In this document: positions 4,204-63,723 of the stretch, one piece after another
How positions within the stretch are numbered: position 1 is the stretch's first letter
How the letters are laid out: the number at the start of each line of letters is the position of its first letter
Source: Dehalococcoidales bacterium
GTDB taxonomy: Bacteria; Chloroflexota; Dehalococcoidia; Dehalococcoidales; W693
Assembly (NCBI GenBank): GCA_034431095.1
Contig: DAOUDM010000019.1
Location: forward strand, 13,653-77,652
Direction: 5' to 3'
DNA: 64,000 nucleotides
The notes under the pieces: model-generated
Databases searched by the model: none
What the model was told of the DNA's origin: nothing
The model's input: only the letters and a program-made list of their open reading frames with translations
Program-made: the position numbers and the translations under genes

Positions 4204-4599
4204 TTACCGCTTGGTGTATTGTGGTGCTTTGCGGGCGCGCTTGAGGCCGGGCTTCTTCCTCTCTTTAGCCCGCGAGTCGCGGGTCAGCAGCCCGTCCTGG
4301 CGCAGTAGCAGCTTGAACCTCTCGTCTTCCTGTAGCAGGGCGCGGGCGATACCGTGAGCAATGGCGCCGCATTGCCCGGCTATGCCGCCGCCGGCTACCT
4401 TGACCAGGACATCGTATTTGCCTGCGGTCTCGGTCACCACCAGCGGTTTCATTATAGTCTGGAGGTGCGCAATGCGGGTGAACCGCTCATCGTAAGGCAT
4501 GCCATTTATCATGATAGTGCCGCTGCCTGGCATCAGCCTTACCTGGGCAACCGCTTCCTTGCGTTTTCCTGTCCCGTGAGAATAGGTTTTCTTTTTCAA
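4204..4599 (-). CDS. rpsI: 30S ribosomal protein S9
   Basis: 131-aa ORF ending in the typical S9 C-terminus ...RKAPQYTKR. It lies downstream of rplM. Confidence 0.95.
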   Translation of the reverse strand: MKKKTYSHGTGKRKEAVAQVRLMPGSGTIMINGMPYDERFTRIAHLQTIMKPLVVTETAGKYDVLVKVAGGGIAGQCGAIAHGIARALLQEDERFKLLLRQDGLLTRDSRAKERKKPGLKRARKAPQYTKR

Positions 4600-39547: not shown

Positions 39548-39955
39548 GTTGGCGGGTGGCTATAGATAAATAAAAGAGAGATTATTTTTCTTAGCAACCT
39601 CTCCCTGCTTAATCCCCCTCTCCTATCAATGAGAGGGGGAAATATCTATAATGGAGGGACTGCGTCCCTCCAAGCCTCCCGCTTTTATAAATGCAAAGCC
39701 TTTCTTAAGCTCTCCAATTTATCGTTCTTCCCTCTCCCTTTAATGAAGGGAGAGGGATAGAGGGTGAGGGATTTATAATAGTTCGCCCCTCTCAAACTCC
39801 CCATTTAAGTCCGTGCCATCTTAAACAACCATCCTAAGCATCCCTGTTTTTCGTTTAAGGGGGGAGTTTGAGAGGGGCCAGCCCCCTCAAATAGAACTTC
39901 CCCTTCCCCTTATTAAGGGGAAGGGGATAAAGGGGATAGGGTTGGTGAAGAAATA
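39548..39955. repeat. intergenic hairpin-repeat cluster C2 (M6-M3-M4-M5 followed by M1-M2)
   Basis: Hairpins lie at 39613-39640, 39653-39671 (GGAGGGAC-TGC-GTCCCTCC) and 39730-39756. A long-range inverted pair lies at 39781-39802 / 39861-39885. M2 with its tail spans 39897-39944. The left part is collinear with C8 and the right part with C1. Confidence 0.9.
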
Positions 39956-43810: not shown

Positions 43811-44055
43811 CAATAACCCCATCCCTCTATTTATTTTGTTAATCTCTCCCCCTTAATCCCCCTCTCTTTAATAAAGAGAGGGGGAAGAGGATTAGAGGGG
43901 CTTCGCTCCTCTAAAACACCCTGTAATACTTTAAGATTTTGTATCTCTTAGACACCCTGTAATATATTTATAGGTTTCACCTCTTTTAAACACTCCTTTT
44001 ATCCCCCCTTCCTTTGGCAAAGGAAGGGGGTCAGGGGGATGGATTTTCCCAGCTT
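43811..44055. repeat. intergenic hairpin-repeat cluster C3 between hisA and hisI
   Basis: Contains an M2-tail complement (AACCCCATCCC), an M3 hairpin (TCCCCCTCTCT-TTAATAA-AGAGAGGGGGA), a degenerate M1 (GAGGGGCTTCGCTCCTC) and an M2 variant. That variant reads CCCCCTTCCTTT-GGC-AAAGGAAGGGGG with tail TCAGGGGGATGG. Confidence 0.85.
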
Positions 44056-46372: not shown

Positions 46373-47833
46373 TTGATAGAAGATAGACGGTTGACTATAC
46401 ACGAAGCGTATCAGCTTCTAAAGACGAAACAGGTGTCGTCGGTTGAGCTGACAAAGGCATCGCTGGAGAGAATAAGAACGCTGGAACCCGATGTCAAAGC
46501 CATCGTCACCGTTACCGAGGGGCTTGCCCTCAAGCAGGCTCGTAGCGCTGATGACAGGCTCGCTTCTGGCAACGGCAGCCCTCTCAACGGCATTCCGGTA
46601 TTGATAAAGGACGTTATTTGCACCCGGGGGGTGAAGACCACCTGCTCGTCAAGGATGCTGGAGAACTTCATACCCCCCTACGACGCTGCGGTAATGGAGA
46701 GGCTGAATGACTGCGGCGCCGTGGTTGTCGGTAAGACCAATATGGACGAGTTCGCTATGGGCTCGTCCACCGAGAACTCGGCCTTCTTTACCACCCGCAA
46801 TCCATGGGATTTAGAGCGTGTCCCCGGTGGCTCCAGCGGCGGCTCGGCGGCGGCGGTAGCCGCCGGTGAAGCTATCTATGCCTTGGGCTCCGATACCGGC
46901 GGCAGTATCCGCCAGCCGGCCAGCTTCTGCAGTGTCACCGGTCTGAAACCCACCTACGGGCGGGTCAGCCGCTACGGGCTAGTCGCCTTCGCCAGCTCTC
47001 TCGACCAGATTGGGCCGCTTACCCGGGACGTTACCGATGCCGCCCTGGTGCTGAACGCCATCGCCGGCTATGATACGAGAGACTCCACCTCGGTGGATAT
47101 GCCAGTCCCAGATTATACCAAGTGTCTCACCGGTGATATAAAGGGACTGCGTCTCGGTGTCCCCAGGGAATACTTTGTCGAGGGGATACAGCCGGGGGTA
47201 GCCGATGCCGTTAATAACGCCATCGCCAAACTTGAAGGGCTAGGGGCGAACGTAGACCGGGAGGTATCCCTGCCCCACACCCCCTATGCCCTGGCGGTGT
47301 ATTACATCATCGCCCCGTCCGAAGCCTCGGCTAACCTGGCTCGCTACGACGGCGTCAAATACGGCTATTCCTACCAGGATGCCGATAGTATGTGGGAGGC
47401 GATGGAAAAGACGAGGCAGTACGGCTTCGGCGCCGAGGTCAAGAGACGCATAATGCTGGGCACCTACGCCCTGTCCGCCGGCTACTACGACGCCTGGTAT
47501 CTCAAGGCGCAGAAGGTGCGCACCTTGATTCGGCGGGAGTTCGACGCCGCCTTTGAGAAATACGACGCCCTGATAACCCCCACCTCGCCCACCGTCCCCT
47601 TCAAGATTGGGGAGAAGACTGACGACCCATTGCAGATGTACCTTTCTGATGTCTGCACCCTGCCGGTGAACATCGCCGGGCTGCCGGCAATCTCCATCCC
47701 GGCGGGATTTGCCGACGGACTGCCGGTGGGCTTGCAGATTATCGCCAAGCCCTTCGCCGAGGAGACCATCCTCAAAATCGCCCACGCCTTTCAGCAGGCG
47801 ACAGACTGGCATAAACGGAGGGCTGGGATTTAG
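46373..47833 (+). CDS. gatA: Asp-tRNA(Asn)/Glu-tRNA(Gln) amidotransferase subunit A
   Basis: 486-aa ORF with the amidase signature ([24 protein letters not shown]). Confidence 0.95.
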
Positions 47834-47848
47834 GGTAAGGAGGTTGTT

Positions 47849-48277
47849 ATGGGATTATCAAATAAAGAGTCTGAGGCCAAACCATCTCAAGTTACTGATG
47901 TGTATTGGATTCATGCTGATAGAAGGAAAGGTAGCTATCCAATGCCTACCTCAAGAAATGGAAAATGGCTTATATTTGTAAAGGATAGAGACATAGATGA
48001 AGTATGGGATAAAATTAGAAAGGCTACAGAGGATGGTAAGTTAGGTAGTGGTGCGAAGGTAGCAACGGCTAAGCCTAGTCTACTAGGAGAATCGGGCACG
48101 AAGGTTATTTGTGTTTATACTTATGATTGGACAGACGAAAAAGATGTAAAGAGAGTTCGTGAAGAGCTTAAAAAACTTGGCATAACCAATAAGATACCTT
48201 ATAAATCGGATGAAGATACGCTAAGTGGGAAGTATATAGCAACTGGACACACAAGAATTAGTAAGTACTATGAATGA
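47849..48277 (+). CDS. AT-rich hypothetical protein (tentatively DUF1917/Bles03-like fold)
   Basis: 142-aa ORF with a GGAGG SD upstream. The pattern GKWLIF....IDEVW.KI..A...G.LG..AKV.T......VICVYT.DW.D..DV.RV...L resembles that family from memory only. Confidence 0.55.
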   Translation: MGLSNKESEAKPSQVTDVYWIHADRRKGSYPMPTSRNGKWLIFVKDRDIDEVWDKIRKATEDGKLGSGAKVATAKPSLLGESGTKVICVYTYDWTDEKDVKRVREELKKLGITNKIPYKSDEDTLSGKYIATGHTRISKYYE

Positions 48278-58194: not shown

Positions 58195-58512
58195 TCTCTT
58201 GGAGGGTGGTGGGTGGGTATAGATACTAAAAGAAAAATTACTATTCATAACAACCTCTCCCCCTTAATCCCCCTCTCCTTGTAAGGAGAGGGGGAGGGTT
58301 AATATGGAGGGACTGCGTCCCTCCAAACCTCCCTCTATTATGTTTTATATGGGTTATATTCCCCTAAACCTCACTCTATTGTGTTTATATGGGCTGTATC
58401 CCCCAAACTTCCCTTTCGAGCTTTGCCCCTCTTAAACATTCCTTTTATTCCATTTATTCCCTCTCCCTTTATTACAAGGGAGAGGGATAGAGGGAGAGGG
58501 ATTTATATAATT
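58195..58512. repeat. intergenic hairpin-repeat cluster C8 (M6-M3-M4-spacer-M5) between nadB and nadC
   Basis: Holds GGGTGGTGGGTGGGTATAGA, an 11-bp hairpin at 58268-58295, GGAGGGAC-TGC-GTCCCTCC at 58306-58324, and an 11-bp hairpin at 58459-58486 with tail ATAGAGGGAGAGGGATTTATA. It is collinear with the left part of C2. Confidence 0.9.
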
Positions 58513-60501: not shown

Positions 60502-61749
60502 CTATCTATGTATTCTTCCCTGGAGCGACCAGGGGCTTGTTTTTTCAATCTTCACTTTCACTAATTTCCCCAGCAGTTCGTCGTTTTCGCTGAAGAACAC
60601 CAGTTTACCACTTTGGCTTCTGCCGTGCCACCTGCCCTTCCTCCTACCCTCTACCAGGACTTCAACTGTTTTGCCCAGAAGCTGACTGTTTATCTCGGTG
60701 GCTATCTTCTCCTGTAGTTGCTCGATAGTATCCAGCCTCTCCTTTTTAACCGATGGCGGGACGTTATCTTCAAGATTTCGGGCGGCGATGGTGTCCGGCC
60801 GGGGTGAATAGGCGGCGACGTGTACGTTATCAAACCTCAGCTCGCGGAGCAGGTCGACCGTTGCCCGGAACTGCTCTTCGCTCTCCAAGGGGAAGCCGAC
60901 GATAACATCGGTGCTCAGGGAGATTGCTGGCACCTGGCTCCGTATTCGGCTGACCAGGTGACGGTATTGCCTGGAGGTATAGCCCCGCCCCATCGTCTTC
61001 AGAACCTCATCGTCTCCCGCCTGGACGGGCAGGTTTATCTGCTGGCATACCTTGTCCAGCTTGGCTATTGCCTCGATAAGCCGGTCGCTCATATCCTTGG
61101 GGTGGTTGGTCAGGAAGCGGATGCGGGCGATGCCGTCTATGCCATTCAGCTCGTAGAGCAGGTGGGCGAGGTCGGGCTTATCGGGCAGGTCGTGGCCGTA
61201 AGAGTCCACGTTCTGCCCCAGCAGGATAACCTCCTTCACCCCGCGCTGTGCCAGCTCTTTTACCTCGTCGACTATTTTAGAGACCGCTCGGCTCTTCTCC
61301 CGCCCGCGGCGGTTGGGGACGACGCAATAGGAACAGAAGTTATCACAGCCCTGGATGATGGGGACGTAGGCGCTCGGCGACGGTTGCTGTGGCAACATCG
61401 GGAACGGCTCGTTTTTTGCCAGCCAATCCGGGTATTCACCGGGCTTGAAGAAGTGGTCGACGTGGGGGAATCGCCGCTTGAGCCTGGCGGTGTCAGAGTT
61501 GACGAGGCAGCCGGTGACGGCCAGCATCGGCGGTCGGGGCGACCTCTTTAGTGTCTTCAGGGCGTTGATTTTGTTTACAATACGGTCTTCAGCATGCTGG
61601 CGCACGACACAGCTATTGAGCACGATGAGGTCGGCTTCCCCGGCGATAGCCGTCGGCTGGTAGCCGAGGTGCTGGAACAGGCTCTCCAGCCGCTCCGACT
61701 CCGCCTTGTTCATCTGACAGCCGATAGTCCAGATATGATATAGGGGCAT
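60502..61749 (-). CDS. miaB: MiaB-family radical SAM methylthiotransferase
   Basis: 415-aa ORF with an N-terminal UPF0004 domain (IWTIGCQMN), radical SAM motif CDNFCSYCVVP, and a C-terminal TRAM domain. Confidence 0.85.
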   Translation of the reverse strand: MPLYHIWTIGCQMNKAESERLESLFQHLGYQPTAIAGEADLIVLNSCVVRQHAEDRIVNKINALKTLKRSPRPPMLAVTGCLVNSDTARLKRRFPHVDHFFKPGEYPDWLAKNEPFPMLPQQPSPSAYVPIIQGCDNFCSYCVVPNRRGREKSRAVSKIVDEVKELAQRGVKEVILLGQNVDSYGHDLPDKPDLAHLLYELNGIDGIARIRFLTNHPKDMSDRLIEAIAKLDKVCQQINLPVQAGDDEVLKTMGRGYTSRQYRHLVSRIRSQVPAISLSTDVIVGFPLESEEQFRATVDLLRELRFDNVHVAAYSPRPDTIAARNLEDNVPPSVKKERLDTIEQLQEKIATEINSQLLGKTVEVLVEGRRKGRWHGRSQSGKLVFFSENDELLGKLVKVKIEKTSPWSLQGRIHR

Positions 61750-61771
61750 AAAAACTAACCTATATTTTTAG

Positions 61772-61963
61772 CTATAAGAACCAAAGTTGGAATTGTTGAT
61801 AAGTCTCTTTATCGTGAAAATCCATGTCTTTGTCATCTTCCCAGACTAATTCAGTAAAGTTGTCATAATCTTCACCGTATCCTTTGCACATGACGAATAT
61901 TCGCCTAAAAGGATTGAGTTTTAAAATAACTCTTGCTAAAAACGGATTAATTGTTGTTGACAT
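61772..61963 (-). CDS. small AT-rich hypothetical ORF downstream of the DpnI-like gene
   Basis: A 63-aa ORF from ATG 61963, which lies 4 nt after the upstream stop, or 74 aa from TTG 61996. No SD is evident and I recognise no family. Confidence 0.35.
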   Translation of the reverse strand: MSTTINPFLARVILKLNPFRRIFVMCKGYGEDYDNFTELVWEDDKDMDFHDKETYQQFQLWFL

Positions 61964-61967
61964 GCTT

Positions 61968-62738
61968 TTATGCAAGGCGGTAAAGTCCTCGTTCAATAAA
62001 CTCCAGATAGCCTTTATCTCTTAAAATCTGTAACTGTTGGCGGATTTTATCTTTAATGTGCTTGTTATCTGGATGTTTTTTGCTTAATACGTTTTCGAAA
62101 GCGTAGACTTCATCAAGGGAAAATTCTTCATTCCCAAGTTCTTCAACACATTTCATGACGTCCAAAAGCCAGCCTTTTGCGTATATCTCCTTTTCTTCTC
62201 TTAAGAAAAGAGTCTTTTGCCATGTTGCAAGAACTTTATCCTTAGGCTCAACTTGGCTGTTTTTAATAAAGAATATTTTCCCTGTTTGAGGAATGCTTTT
62301 CAGTATAATATTACATCCGACCCAACCAGCACGTCGTGCAGTTTGTGCTAACGCTTTTCTTTTTTCTATTATCTCAGGAATAAAGAAGTGTTTGGGTATA
62401 ACGAAAAGATTTAAAACCATAAGATTTTTTAAGTCGTAATTTAACAGAAAGAAGTTTGGATTATTGCTATCCAGCAATCTTTCAATCATGGTACTGTATG
62501 CGCCATTGACTATTTTATTTCCAAATTTATCCCTCTTGCTTTTTAATTCATAAACCTCCTTACAGTTAGAACAGAAAAAATCGGAGACAGGTTTATTGTT
62601 CGCATATTTATTGATGTCAATATTCCCGCAGTTAGGACAATAAACATGATTGCCAACCCAACTCTCAGTTAGAACTCTAATTCTTTGAGATGGATTTTTA
62701 TAATCCTGGGCTAAATCTATTTGAAAGGATAGATTCAT
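61968..62738 (-). CDS. DpnI-like (Dam-replacing family) methyl-directed type IIM restriction endonuclease
   Basis: 256-aa AT-rich ORF. It closely parallels remembered DpnI features: SQRIRVLTE.W....YCPNCG, PV.DF.C..C.E.YELKS, NNPNFF.L.Y, ARRAGW.GCNI, and a C-terminal winged helix with HIK.KIRQQLQILRDK. Confidence 0.85.
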   Translation of the reverse strand: MNLSFQIDLAQDYKNPSQRIRVLTESWVGNHVYCPNCGNIDINKYANNKPVSDFFCSNCKEVYELKSKRDKFGNKIVNGAYSTMIERLLDSNNPNFFLLNYDLKNLMVLNLFVIPKHFFIPEIIEKRKALAQTARRAGWVGCNIILKSIPQTGKIFFIKNSQVEPKDKVLATWQKTLFLREEKEIYAKGWLLDVMKCVEELGNEEFSLDEVYAFENVLSKKHPDNKHIKDKIRQQLQILRDKGYLEFIERGLYRLA

Positions 62739-62802
62739 ATTTCCAGATAGAGCTTTAAGTGTGGTACTTCATAGTAAGGAGTTTTCATTTTTTATCTTTC
62801 TC

Positions 62803-62894
62803 TGGCGGAGGGGGAGGGATTCGAACCCTCGACCCCGGTTTCCCGGGGTAAGCGCTTAGCAGGCGCCCGCACTAGGCCACTATGCGACCCCTCC
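62803..62894 (-). tRNA. tRNA-Ser (anticodon GCT), CCA encoded
   Basis: The reverse complement is GGAGGGGTCGCATAGTGGCCTAGTGCGGGCGCCTGCTAAGCGCTTACCCCGGGAAACCGGGGTCGAGGGTTCGAATCCCTCCCCCTCCGCCA. It forms a class II cloverleaf with a long variable arm and anticodon loop CTGCTAA. Confidence 0.92.
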
Positions 62895-62974
62895 TCGCCT
62901 TGTAGTATCTCAGAGCCCTGGTTGACACCTTTAATATATCATATCAACCTTGATAGCTCAAAGATATTTTAAGT

Positions 62975-63185
62975 CTTTAACAACCTTTCCCCTTAGCCCT
63001 CTTCCTTAAGGGTGGTGGGTGGGAATAGACAGTAAGAGAGGGATTTATATTTGCTACCAACCTCACCCCCTTAATCCCCCTCTCCTTATAAGGAGAGGGG
63101 GAGATATAAGAAAGAGGGGGCATAAGCCCCCTCTAAACACCCCCTTCCAGGTGCTGGTTAGGGGAGAGAGATAAAAAGAAATAGG
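62975..63185. repeat. intergenic hairpin-repeat cluster C9
   Basis: Contains M6 (GGGTGGTGGGTGGGAATAGA), an M5 tail fragment (AGAGGGATTTATA) and an M3 11-bp hairpin at 63075-63102. An M1-type hairpin AGAGGGGGC-ATAA-GCCCCCTCT lies at 63113-63134. Confidence 0.85.
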
Positions 63186-63249
63186 GGCTACACTCTTCAT
63201 GGGCTCCCTATTTGAGGGCTACTCAACGCTATGCTATGATGAGATACAC

Positions 63250-63723
63250 ATGGAAATCAACGTTCTGTTCGATGAAGGCTTCGAGGACTGCCTTGGCGCC
63301 GAATGGCTTCAGGGGATAGCCGGGGCGGTGCTGGTTGCTCAGGGTATCGGGGACGATGTCGAGATGGGGCTGGTGATTGCCAGCCAGCAAAGGGTGCAGG
63401 AGCTGAATAAGACCTACCGGGGCAAAGATAAGCCCACCGATGTTCTCGCCTTTGCCCTGCTACCCGAAACCGATACAGAGCCGGATTTATCGTTCACCGC
63501 ACCGCCTGATGGGGTAAAGCACCTGGGAGAGGTGATTATCAGCTACCCGCAGGCTGTCCGACAGGCGGAGGAGCACCAGCATTCGCTAAAGAGGGAGGTG
63601 GCTATCCTCGCCATCCATGGGGTGCTTCACCTGCTGGGCTATGACCATATCGGATCTGATGAAGCAGCTTTGATGTCAGCTAAAGAGGCAGAAATACTGA
63701 AGGTGGTTGAGGCAGAGCTGTAA
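63250..63723 (+). CDS. ybeY: rRNA maturation endoribonuclease YbeY
   Basis: Has the zinc motif HGVLHLLGYDH. The start is ATG 63250. The ORF-track start at 63199 adds 17 non-conserved residues. Confidence 0.9.
   Translation: MEINVLFDEGFEDCLGAEWLQGIAGAVLVAQGIGDDVEMGLVIASQQRVQELNKTYRGKDKPTDVLAFALLPETDTEPDLSFTAPPDGVKHLGEVIISYPQAVRQAEEHQHSLKREVAILAIHGVLHLLGYDHIGSDEAALMSAKEAEILKVVEAEL

Follow-up and report, generated by a model that had tools for sequence, protein, structure and literature searches.

A DpnI-family cassette between tRNA-Ser(GCT) and miaB in a Dehalococcoidales bacterium, probably in place of a GATC restriction-modification operon

At the dpn locus of Streptococcus pneumoniae, one and the same site can be occupied by a DpnI, a DpnII or a DpnIII cassette (PMC4471560, PMC3573125), and in the first of these a further small gene, whose function is unknown, comes after the DpnI gene (PMC4471560). 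In Neisseria, the DpnI-family gene drg is inserted in dam, which it truncates, has a low GC content and has been likened to a minimal mobile element; in mutants of this gene, the expression of genes and the formation of biofilms are altered (PMC4269198). Here we describe a related cassette in a stretch of 64,000 nucleotides from an uncultivated Dehalococcoidales bacterium (assembly GCA_034431095.1, contig DAOUDM010000019.1, positions 13,653 to 77,652 of the forward strand), referred to below as the window. The cassette is located between the genes of tRNA-Ser(GCT) and miaB and comprises three open reading frames (ORFs), namely, a short leader, the gene of a DpnI-family restriction endonuclease and a gene for a protein of 63 amino acids (aa); its outer flanks are ybeY and miaB-yajC-nadB. 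It is likely that this borrowed cassette replaced a GATC restriction-modification (R-M) operon at a variable genomic site, serves as a defence against methylated DNA and has spread by recombination. Both the DpnI family and the polymorphism of DpnI and DpnII cassettes are already known, and the details added by this locus are the leader ORF, the 63-aa partner and the extreme avoidance of GATC. The occurrence of complementary DpnI and DpnII cassettes, hitherto familiar from textbooks for the pneumococcus, with an echo in Neisseria, would thereby be extended to uncultivated Dehalococcoidia.

The central gene of the cassette encodes a homologue of R.DpnI, the type IIM enzyme encoded by dpnC of S. 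pneumoniae (PDB 4ESJ and 4KYW), and has the same two-domain architecture over its full length. The product matches the Pfam families DpnI (PF06044, residues 1-181, E = 1.7e-77, 259.6 bits against a gathering cut-off of 26.7) and DpnI_C (PF17726, residues 187-254, E = 2e-33, 114.8 bits, cut-off 23), the PADLOC model mREase_II of type II methyl-directed restriction enzymes (E = 4.6e-113) and, with 48% identity over the full length, the crystallised R.DpnI of S. pneumoniae (PDB 4esj, E = 3.3e-80). These searches confirm the assignment to the DpnI family that the initial annotation had made from motifs, and these motifs are present: YCPNCG / FCSNC, and KIRQQLQILRDK, which forms the recognition helix in both enzymes.

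The functional residues were identified by alignment to R.DpnI, read against the published structures (PMC3424567, PMC4117772). The catalytic residues E25, D53, E64 and K66 and the two CXXC pairs of the zinc site (C34, C37, C56 and C59) are kept at the same positions as in R.DpnI. The guanine contacts and the methyl cleft are also kept (N48, R127, L130, R136, W139 and G141, corresponding to N48, R126, L129, R135, W138 and G140 of DpnI). Four of the five residues of the winged-helix pocket are identical (K231, R233, Q234 and Q237, corresponding to DpnI K229, R231, Q232 and Q235), and the fifth, DpnI E228, is replaced by D230. The window enzyme is probably functional and would cut GATC only when its adenine is methylated; the PD-(D/E)XK and winged-helix domains of the monomer would each read G(m6A)TC, and cleavage would need methylated adenines. 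A nuclease of the DpnI fold with another specificity, directed to m6A in a different context or independent of methylation, is very improbable. Room for it is left by the identity of only 48% to R.DpnI, by the change of E228 to D and by the star activity of R.DpnI on other m6A contexts (PMC3424567), but the residues that contact guanine and line the methyl cleft, together with most of the winged-helix pocket, are those of DpnI. Apart from the degree of identity, the locus differs from that of R.DpnI in its uncultivated Dehalococcoidia host, whose GC content is far above that of the gene, in the methylase-derived leader ORF upstream, and in the downstream 63-aa protein, which has no DpnD-type Pfam similarity.

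The leader ORF lies within the 64 nt upstream of the DpnI gene, and its TGA overlaps the DpnI ATG (ATATGA). In related loci this ORF is longer (38-88 aa) and reads ...LYLDNCLDVLAEIPEESIDMIFADPPYFLSNG...; this sequence identifies the longer version as the N-terminal part of a beta-class N6/N4 DNA methyltransferase, with motif IV (DPPY) included. Counting the shortest versions, the homologous ORFs span 17-88 aa. In each of the 16 loci with a recognisable remnant, the ORF stops on the DpnI start codon or just beyond it; in L090 and L113 the remnant has decayed further. A search with a 75-aa version of the remnant returned 160 protein clusters of 53-131 aa each, none of them full length.

One of these fragments, P0243, belongs to locus L169, where a methylase of this type is found at the same site. 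L169 shares the downstream synteny of the window (tRNA-Ser, miaB, yajC, nadB), and its upstream neighbours are serpin genes, a feature also of L081. The order of the site in L169 is tRNA-Ser, 19 nt, a 270-aa N6_N4 methylase, a 142-aa ORF, a DpnII-family nuclease, 17 nt and miaB. The methylase matches N6_N4_Mtase with an E-value of 2.8e-58 if a surplus T is taken out of a T-run, and the nuclease matches Pfam DpnII (PF04556) with an E-value of 4e-90, while the 142-aa ORF (L169:4811-5239) has no match in Pfam, PADLOC or PHROG. The remnant of locus L085 is 83% identical to the N-terminus of the L169 methylase (P0243). The second methylase of the Lactococcus plasmid pSRQ700, whose gene is flanked by a Dam-like methylase on one side and a type II endonuclease on the other, shares 52% identity with the L169 methylase over its full length, and the L169 nuclease is 40% identical to the type II nuclease of this plasmid. 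The pSRQ700 system is the GATC-specific LlaDCHI, a relative of DpnII, and from its family membership the DpnII-type system of Dehalococcoidia would be specific for GATC as well.

A hybrid of the two kinds of cassette is present in L175 (32% GC), where residues 1-110 of the methylase are followed by DpnI, a 77-aa ORF and the last 114 residues of a DpnII nuclease. Its methylase part is 81% identical to that of L169, and its DpnII part is 74% identical to residues 196-305 of the L169 nuclease. The methylase remnant, the L169 allele and the L175 hybrid together indicate that DpnI took the place of a GATC R-M operon. In the proposed course of events, DpnI and the 63-aa gene would have replaced the interior of a resident operon consisting of a DpnA/LlaDCHIB-like methylase and a DpnII-type nuclease, of which the first 17 methylase codons would survive in the window as the leader ORF, its stop overlapping the DpnI start. 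Such molecular fossils give the replacement a direction, from a methylating R-M operon to a methyl-dependent nuclease. The family name 'Dam-replacing' fits almost literally, the replaced methylase being DpnA-like and not Dam.

In locus L091, the 63-aa ORF and miaB are separated by an extra segment of about 440 nt (L091:1229-1665), which resembles the C-terminal half of a GATC nuclease of the MutH/Sau3AI type. The matches (Pfam MutH, E = 0.0036, 17.6 bits, cut-off 23; PDB MutH, E = 0.06) are below threshold, so this resemblance is only suggestive; the segment may represent a second kind of replaced GATC nuclease.

As in the dpn locus (dpnC-dpnD; dpnM-dpnA-dpnB), opposite GATC systems, one methyl-dependent and the other methyl-sensitive, thus occur as alleles between the same flanks, in the window and in L169, without mobility genes. 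Unlike the dpn locus, the DpnI allele of the window keeps a 5' fragment of a DpnA-like methylase, to which L175 adds a 3' fragment of DpnII, and L169 has one methylase and the extra 142-aa ORF instead of dpnM and dpnA. Natural transformation is not known for these Dehalococcoidia. The product of drg (NmeBII/Drg) is 47% identical to the DpnI of the window, and in N. gonorrhoeae a DpnIIB-like methylase sequence is found 280 nt downstream of drg. The window resembles the drg locus in having a low-GC DpnI-family gene between conserved genes, no mobility functions and a truncated methylase. However, Neisseria lost a D12-class Dam next to leuS and has the DpnIIB-like sequence downstream, whereas the remnant in the window is beta-class and DpnA-like, lies upstream and forms an overlapping leader ORF. 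Compared with the LlaDCHI (pSRQ700) and DpnII R-M systems, which represent the type of operon that was probably replaced, the window retains only 17 codons.

The boundaries of the cassette were defined by comparison with relatives (Table 1). The MiaB protein of the window is 58-80% identical to MiaB of 80 Dehalococcoidia loci, the top species representative of GTDB being at 80%, which places the host in Dehalococcoidia. Approximately 64 relatives have retained tRNA-Ser upstream of miaB, and in about 50 of them the spacer between these genes is only 36-120 nt; the 1053 nt found in the window are therefore an insertion. The comparison of this interval, which had been proposed in the initial annotation, thus shows that the site is empty in most relatives and occupied in the window. 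When aligned with empty sites, the insert begins about 14 nt past the tRNA and stops 22 nt short of the miaB ATG. The DpnI gene begins 64 nt from the 3' end of the tRNA and is far more AT-rich than its neighbours, both as earlier described: the GC content is 0.33-0.36 over positions 61700-62750 versus about 0.6 in miaB, and the GC content at third codon positions (GC3) is 0.33 in the DpnI gene versus 0.73 in miaB. Overall, the GC content of the cassette is 0.34 versus 0.54 for host DNA. A foreign origin of this AT-rich segment and its horizontal acquisition are supported.

Table 1. Features of the cassette and its flanks in the window
Feature	Position	Strand	Basis and remarks
Inserted cassette, 1053 nt, 33.8% GC, no GATC site	61750..62802	(-)	Alignment to empty sites L001, L003 and L004; spacer lengths of relatives; composition
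tRNA-Ser(GCT), left flank, CCA encoded	62803..62894	(-)	ARAGORN; Rfam tRNA, 53.8 bits; precedes miaB in about 64 Dehalococcoidia loci
Leader ORF of 17 codons, MKTPYYEVPHLKLYLEI followed by stop	62735..62788	(-)	Translation; N-terminal remnant of a DpnA/LlaDCHIB-like methylase
DpnI-family type IIM restriction endonuclease, 256 aa	61968..62738	(-)	PD-(D/E)XK domain with Cys4 zinc site, then C-terminal winged helix
Conserved 63-aa gene, acidic C-terminal half	61772..61963	(-)	Starts 4 nt past the DpnI stop
Junction from the stop of the 63-aa ORF to the miaB ATG, 22 nt	61750..61771	(-)	Without predicted terminator (z-score 0.17); native spacer hairpin gone
miaB, radical-SAM methylthiotransferase, right flank, host gene	60502..61749	(-)	Pfam UPF0004, Radical_SAM and TRAM
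Candidate promoter-like site, TTGAGC-17-TATATT with TG extension	62933..62961	(-)	Consensus scan; about 39 nt upstream of the tRNA

The site between tRNA-Ser and miaB is variable. The cassette of DpnI and the 63-aa gene occupies it in further Dehalococcoidia lineages (L022, L081-L091, L098 and L113), where the DpnI proteins are 65-86% identical to that of the window, and in other species the cargo comprises GNAT acetyltransferases, DUF1801 proteins, a MazEF pair, an HNH nuclease or a 23S-IVP protein. A short G+C hairpin, conserved as CCCCTTAGTTAAGGGG or CCCCTGAAAAGGGG, is located just 3' of the tRNA in the empty sites L003, L004, L007, L009 and L012; in the empty site L001 only a weaker CTCC...GGAG pairing is found in its place. 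This hairpin was not found in the occupied alleles examined, and simple deletion therefore cannot turn occupied sites into empty ones.

The position of the cassette at the 3' end of a tRNA gene may also be explained by a remnant of an integrative island, inserted by an integrase at tRNA-Ser and later mostly deleted. The cassette abuts the tRNA 3' end at a site that receives varied cargo in other species, the hybrid of L175 is also found 3' of a tRNA-Ser gene, and one pair of DpnI and the 63-aa gene stands beside a phage-type integrase in the unrelated contig L177. Nevertheless, such an origin is unlikely. No integrase is encoded in or beside the cassette among the ORFs of the window or in the other Dehalococcoidia loci examined, and no direct repeat of the tRNA 3' end or att site was found within 61650-63250, in agreement with the initial annotation, which had reported neither integrase nor partial tRNA repeat. 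Moreover, the tRNA is intact and of the same type as at empty sites, the insert fills the spacer, and the methylase and DpnII fragments show that genes were replaced in place. Replacement of the operon is thus preferred to tRNA-directed integration because of the methylase remnant, the lack of integrase and att repeat, and the loss of the native spacer. The earlier view of the tRNA-adjacent site as a hotspot holds, with operon replacement the better account of the insertion itself. The tRNA-Ser gene beside the L175 hybrid has the anticodon TGA (L175:3802-3891) and ends 110 nt from it; this neighbourhood could be due to chance, or it may hint at tRNA-Ser genes as the target of the ancestral R-M cassette.

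The distribution of the cassette is patchy. The nearest species representative of the window, L001, has an empty site, the occupied L091 stands beside the empty L003, and L113 with the DpnI allele stands beside L169 with the DpnII allele, their miaB genes being 85% identical at the nucleotide level, the best match of the L169 gene among the loci compared. Synonymous divergence (dS) from the window disagrees between host gene and cassette: for L081, miaB has a dS of 1.38 and DpnI one of 0.60, and for L022, miaB has a dS of 1.13 and that of DpnI is saturated. The DpnI gene of L022 is nearer to genes from outside Dehalococcoidia (73%) than to other Dehalococcoidia copies (61-69%). The methylase fragment of L022 is chimeric: codons 1-24 have 85% nucleotide identity to the Dehalococcoidia type, and codons 25-35 are nearer to the non-Dehalococcoidia type (76-82% versus 64-70%). 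The patchy presence, the discordant dS values and the chimeric L022 suggest allele replacement by homologous recombination. It is most likely that the cassette passes between lineages without an integrase, through homologous recombination located either in the flanks, which are conserved, or within the methylase fragment, although the evidence is suggestive rather than decisive. A single vertical acquisition in Dehalococcoidia was considered and found insufficient, given the DpnI tree, the affinity of the L022 gene and the discordant dS. Related cassettes occur on low-GC contigs, some of which are annotated as Patescibacteria. Among phage records only matches to the winged-helix domain were found, and there were no DpnI relatives in viral contigs. 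The methylase fragments show pN values of 0.07-0.3 versus pS values of 0.4-0.9, so either the peptide matters or the 5' arm has been repeatedly renewed from intact alleles.

The genome fragment is strongly depleted in GATC. Outside the cassette, the window contains 20 GATC sites versus 262 expected from trinucleotide frequencies, which corresponds to an observed-to-expected ratio (O/E) of 0.08, or approximately 12-fold depletion. Other palindromic tetranucleotides in the window are nowhere near as depleted, GGCC (0.31) and CGCG (0.41) being also low. For the 80 related Dehalococcoidia miaB loci, the pooled O/E of GATC is 0.30 and the median 0.20, versus about 0.8 for the CATG control, and it seems from this depletion that the clade has long been exposed to GATC-directed restriction. 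In 74 distinct DpnI ORFs (L081-L168), GATC occurs 17 times versus 183 expected (O/E 0.09), and the O/E of their flanks is 0.67. Such avoidance within the DpnI genes is as expected of a mobile gene if GATC is the target of its own product or of its DpnII-type rivals. An O/E of 0.08-0.09 in the gene family and in the host, with control palindromes less depleted, also argues against a nuclease of another specificity, as does the replacement of an operon of the DpnII/LlaDCHI type. The exchange of cassettes acting on GATC offers a possible reason for the near-absence of this site in these genomes, and we may speculate that the small number of sites would make a switch between methylating and methyl-cutting alleles less lethal.

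Since the enzyme would cut only methylated GATC, its host must keep its own rare GATC sites unmethylated. In the 64-kb window, no ORF with a motif IV of the DPPY/NPPY type was found, and the broader pattern [DNS]PP[YFWH] gave a single match, an unverified SPPF at 47243-47854(-). In such a host the enzyme would destroy phage and plasmid DNA replicated in GATC-methylating cells, including those of sister lineages with the DpnII-type cassette at this site. Sister lineages are accordingly predicted to differ in GATC methylation and to restrict each other's phages and DNA.

Alternatively, the DpnI gene may be a silent or decaying passenger, or it may have been recruited to a role outside defence, as some phenotypes of Neisseria Drg suggest; we consider this improbable. 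In its favour, the gene is much more AT-rich than the host, which might promote silencing, and lacks an evident promoter of its own; the DpnI of L110 is truncated, and drg mutants of Neisseria are changed in expression and biofilm formation (PMC4269198). However, the ORF of the window is intact, with conserved catalytic and recognition residues, and the gene is under purifying selection, with dN/dS of 0.06-0.16 across the Dehalococcoidia copies, at dS of up to 1-2. The overlap of the leader stop with the DpnI ATG is also conserved, and the tenfold avoidance of GATC within the DpnI genes would make sense only with an enzyme active on GATC. The L110 copy (L110:497-) is broken after 126 codons and is a probable pseudogene or an assembly error.

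The third gene of the cassette encodes a protein with more than 120 homologues, of 57-87% identity and nearly all 63 aa long, in which 10 columns are invariant; dN/dS of this gene is 0.05-0.21. It had been described as an ORF of 63-74 aa, of which the 63-aa form beginning with ATG is real and conserved. The 74-aa version beginning with TTG was rejected because the homologues are 63 aa long and conservation begins at the ATG. The gene is found directly 3' of DpnI in every context examined, including beside an integrase and beside a LexA-like gene, at a distance of 1-16 nt in most loci carrying it and of about 235-280 nt in four. It is present in 40 of 77 related DpnI loci, and its absence from approximately half of them indicates that it is accessory and not required for DpnI function.

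An AlphaFold2 model of the 63-aa protein (pLDDT 86) has the order beta-alpha-beta-beta-alpha-beta, and with this model Foldseek found no fold match in the PDB (best E = 1). The protein has no match in Pfam, NCBIfam, PADLOC or PHROG, and an exhaustive profile search of 1.84 billion representatives retrieved only 61 small relatives and one unannotated protein of 167 aa. Together with ten divergent relatives, it gave no Pfam match at E <= 1 in a library presumed to contain the DpnD-PcfM model. Thus, the likeness to the dpnC-dpnD cassette noticed in the initial annotation extends to the presence and position of a second small gene after DpnI, but not, as judged by Pfam models, to homology with DpnD. 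The parallel with the two-gene DpnI cassette of the pneumococcus is supported, and it is strengthened by the DpnII-type cassette at the same site in L169. As a guess of low confidence, the 63-aa protein might modulate DpnI. This widespread partner and the methylase-derived leader ORF are uncharacterised components that deserve study.

No promoter-like site was found by the consensus scan on the minus (coding) strand inside the cassette, a candidate site precedes the tRNA, and no terminator is predicted between the 63-aa ORF and miaB. The cassette is therefore probably transcribed from the tRNA-Ser promoter, in a read-through transcript extending from tRNA-Ser through the leader, DpnI and the 63-aa gene into miaB. 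Matches to the promoter consensus are no more frequent than in shuffled sequence, and for this reason the site is regarded as a candidate only. The overlapping reading frames suggest that translation of DpnI may be coupled to that of the leader ORF. A terminator-like hairpin, AGAGGGGGCTTATGCCCCCTCT, with a T-rich tail is located at 63113-63134 (-), between ybeY and the region of the tRNA-Ser promoter.

Several observations weigh against replacement of a GATC R-M operon by a functional DpnI cassette, or against parts of this account. The activity of the window protein is deduced from sequence. A host free of GATC methylation is a biological necessity for this account, and the methylase screen covered 64 kb. 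The deposited methylase of L169 is split into two called genes by a frameshift of 1 nt (the extra T, L169:~4290-4300), which may reflect either an error of sequencing or a genuine inactivation. Only 33 nt define the recombination breakpoint in L022, and the DpnI tree was built by neighbour-joining without bootstrap support. The promoter was assigned by a consensus match that shows no excess over shuffled sequence, and the 63-aa gene is missing from about half of the related DpnI loci. Finally, GC3 of the cassette is 0.32-0.34 in the window, L081, L085 and L087 versus 0.55-0.73 for miaB, so that no amelioration of GC3 is seen despite DpnI dS values reaching 0.5-0.9, a combination that a simple history as an old resident fails to explain.

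The methylase fragment and the 63-aa protein may have a larger part than debris and a bystander and be working components of a self-propagating 'methylase-replacing' module, with roles as homology arms, leader, restraint and source of a genome signature; we regard this extension as doubtful. In such a module, the 5' fragment of the methylase, and in some loci the 3' fragment of DpnII, would act as homology arms steering DpnI into GATC R-M operons, so that one recombination event would knock out the incompatible methylase and install the nuclease. The translated leader would couple and throttle the translation of DpnI, and the acidic 63-aa protein, as an inhibitor or DNA mimic, would transiently restrain the enzyme as GATC methylation left from the earlier system is diluted out. 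The extreme depletion of GATC across the Dehalococcoidia clade would then be accounted for by DpnI and DpnII alleles having replaced each other repeatedly.

The Rfam scan of the region returned the tRNA only; an antisense match to 'Plastid-psbl-rps4' was considered spurious because it overlaps the tRNA and scores below the gathering cut-off. Repeat cluster C9 showed no link to the cassette; it had been placed beyond the tRNA and is indeed present there as an inverted pair at 63075-63102. The cluster consists of inverted pairs of GGAGAGGGGGA, spaced 17-18 nt from start to start, for example, TCCCCCTCTCCTTA/TAAGGAGAGGGGGA, which are also found at 39613-39640, 43857-43885 and 58268-58295 of the window. 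With 11 matches versus 2.3 expected, it looks like a dispersed small palindromic intergenic repeat.

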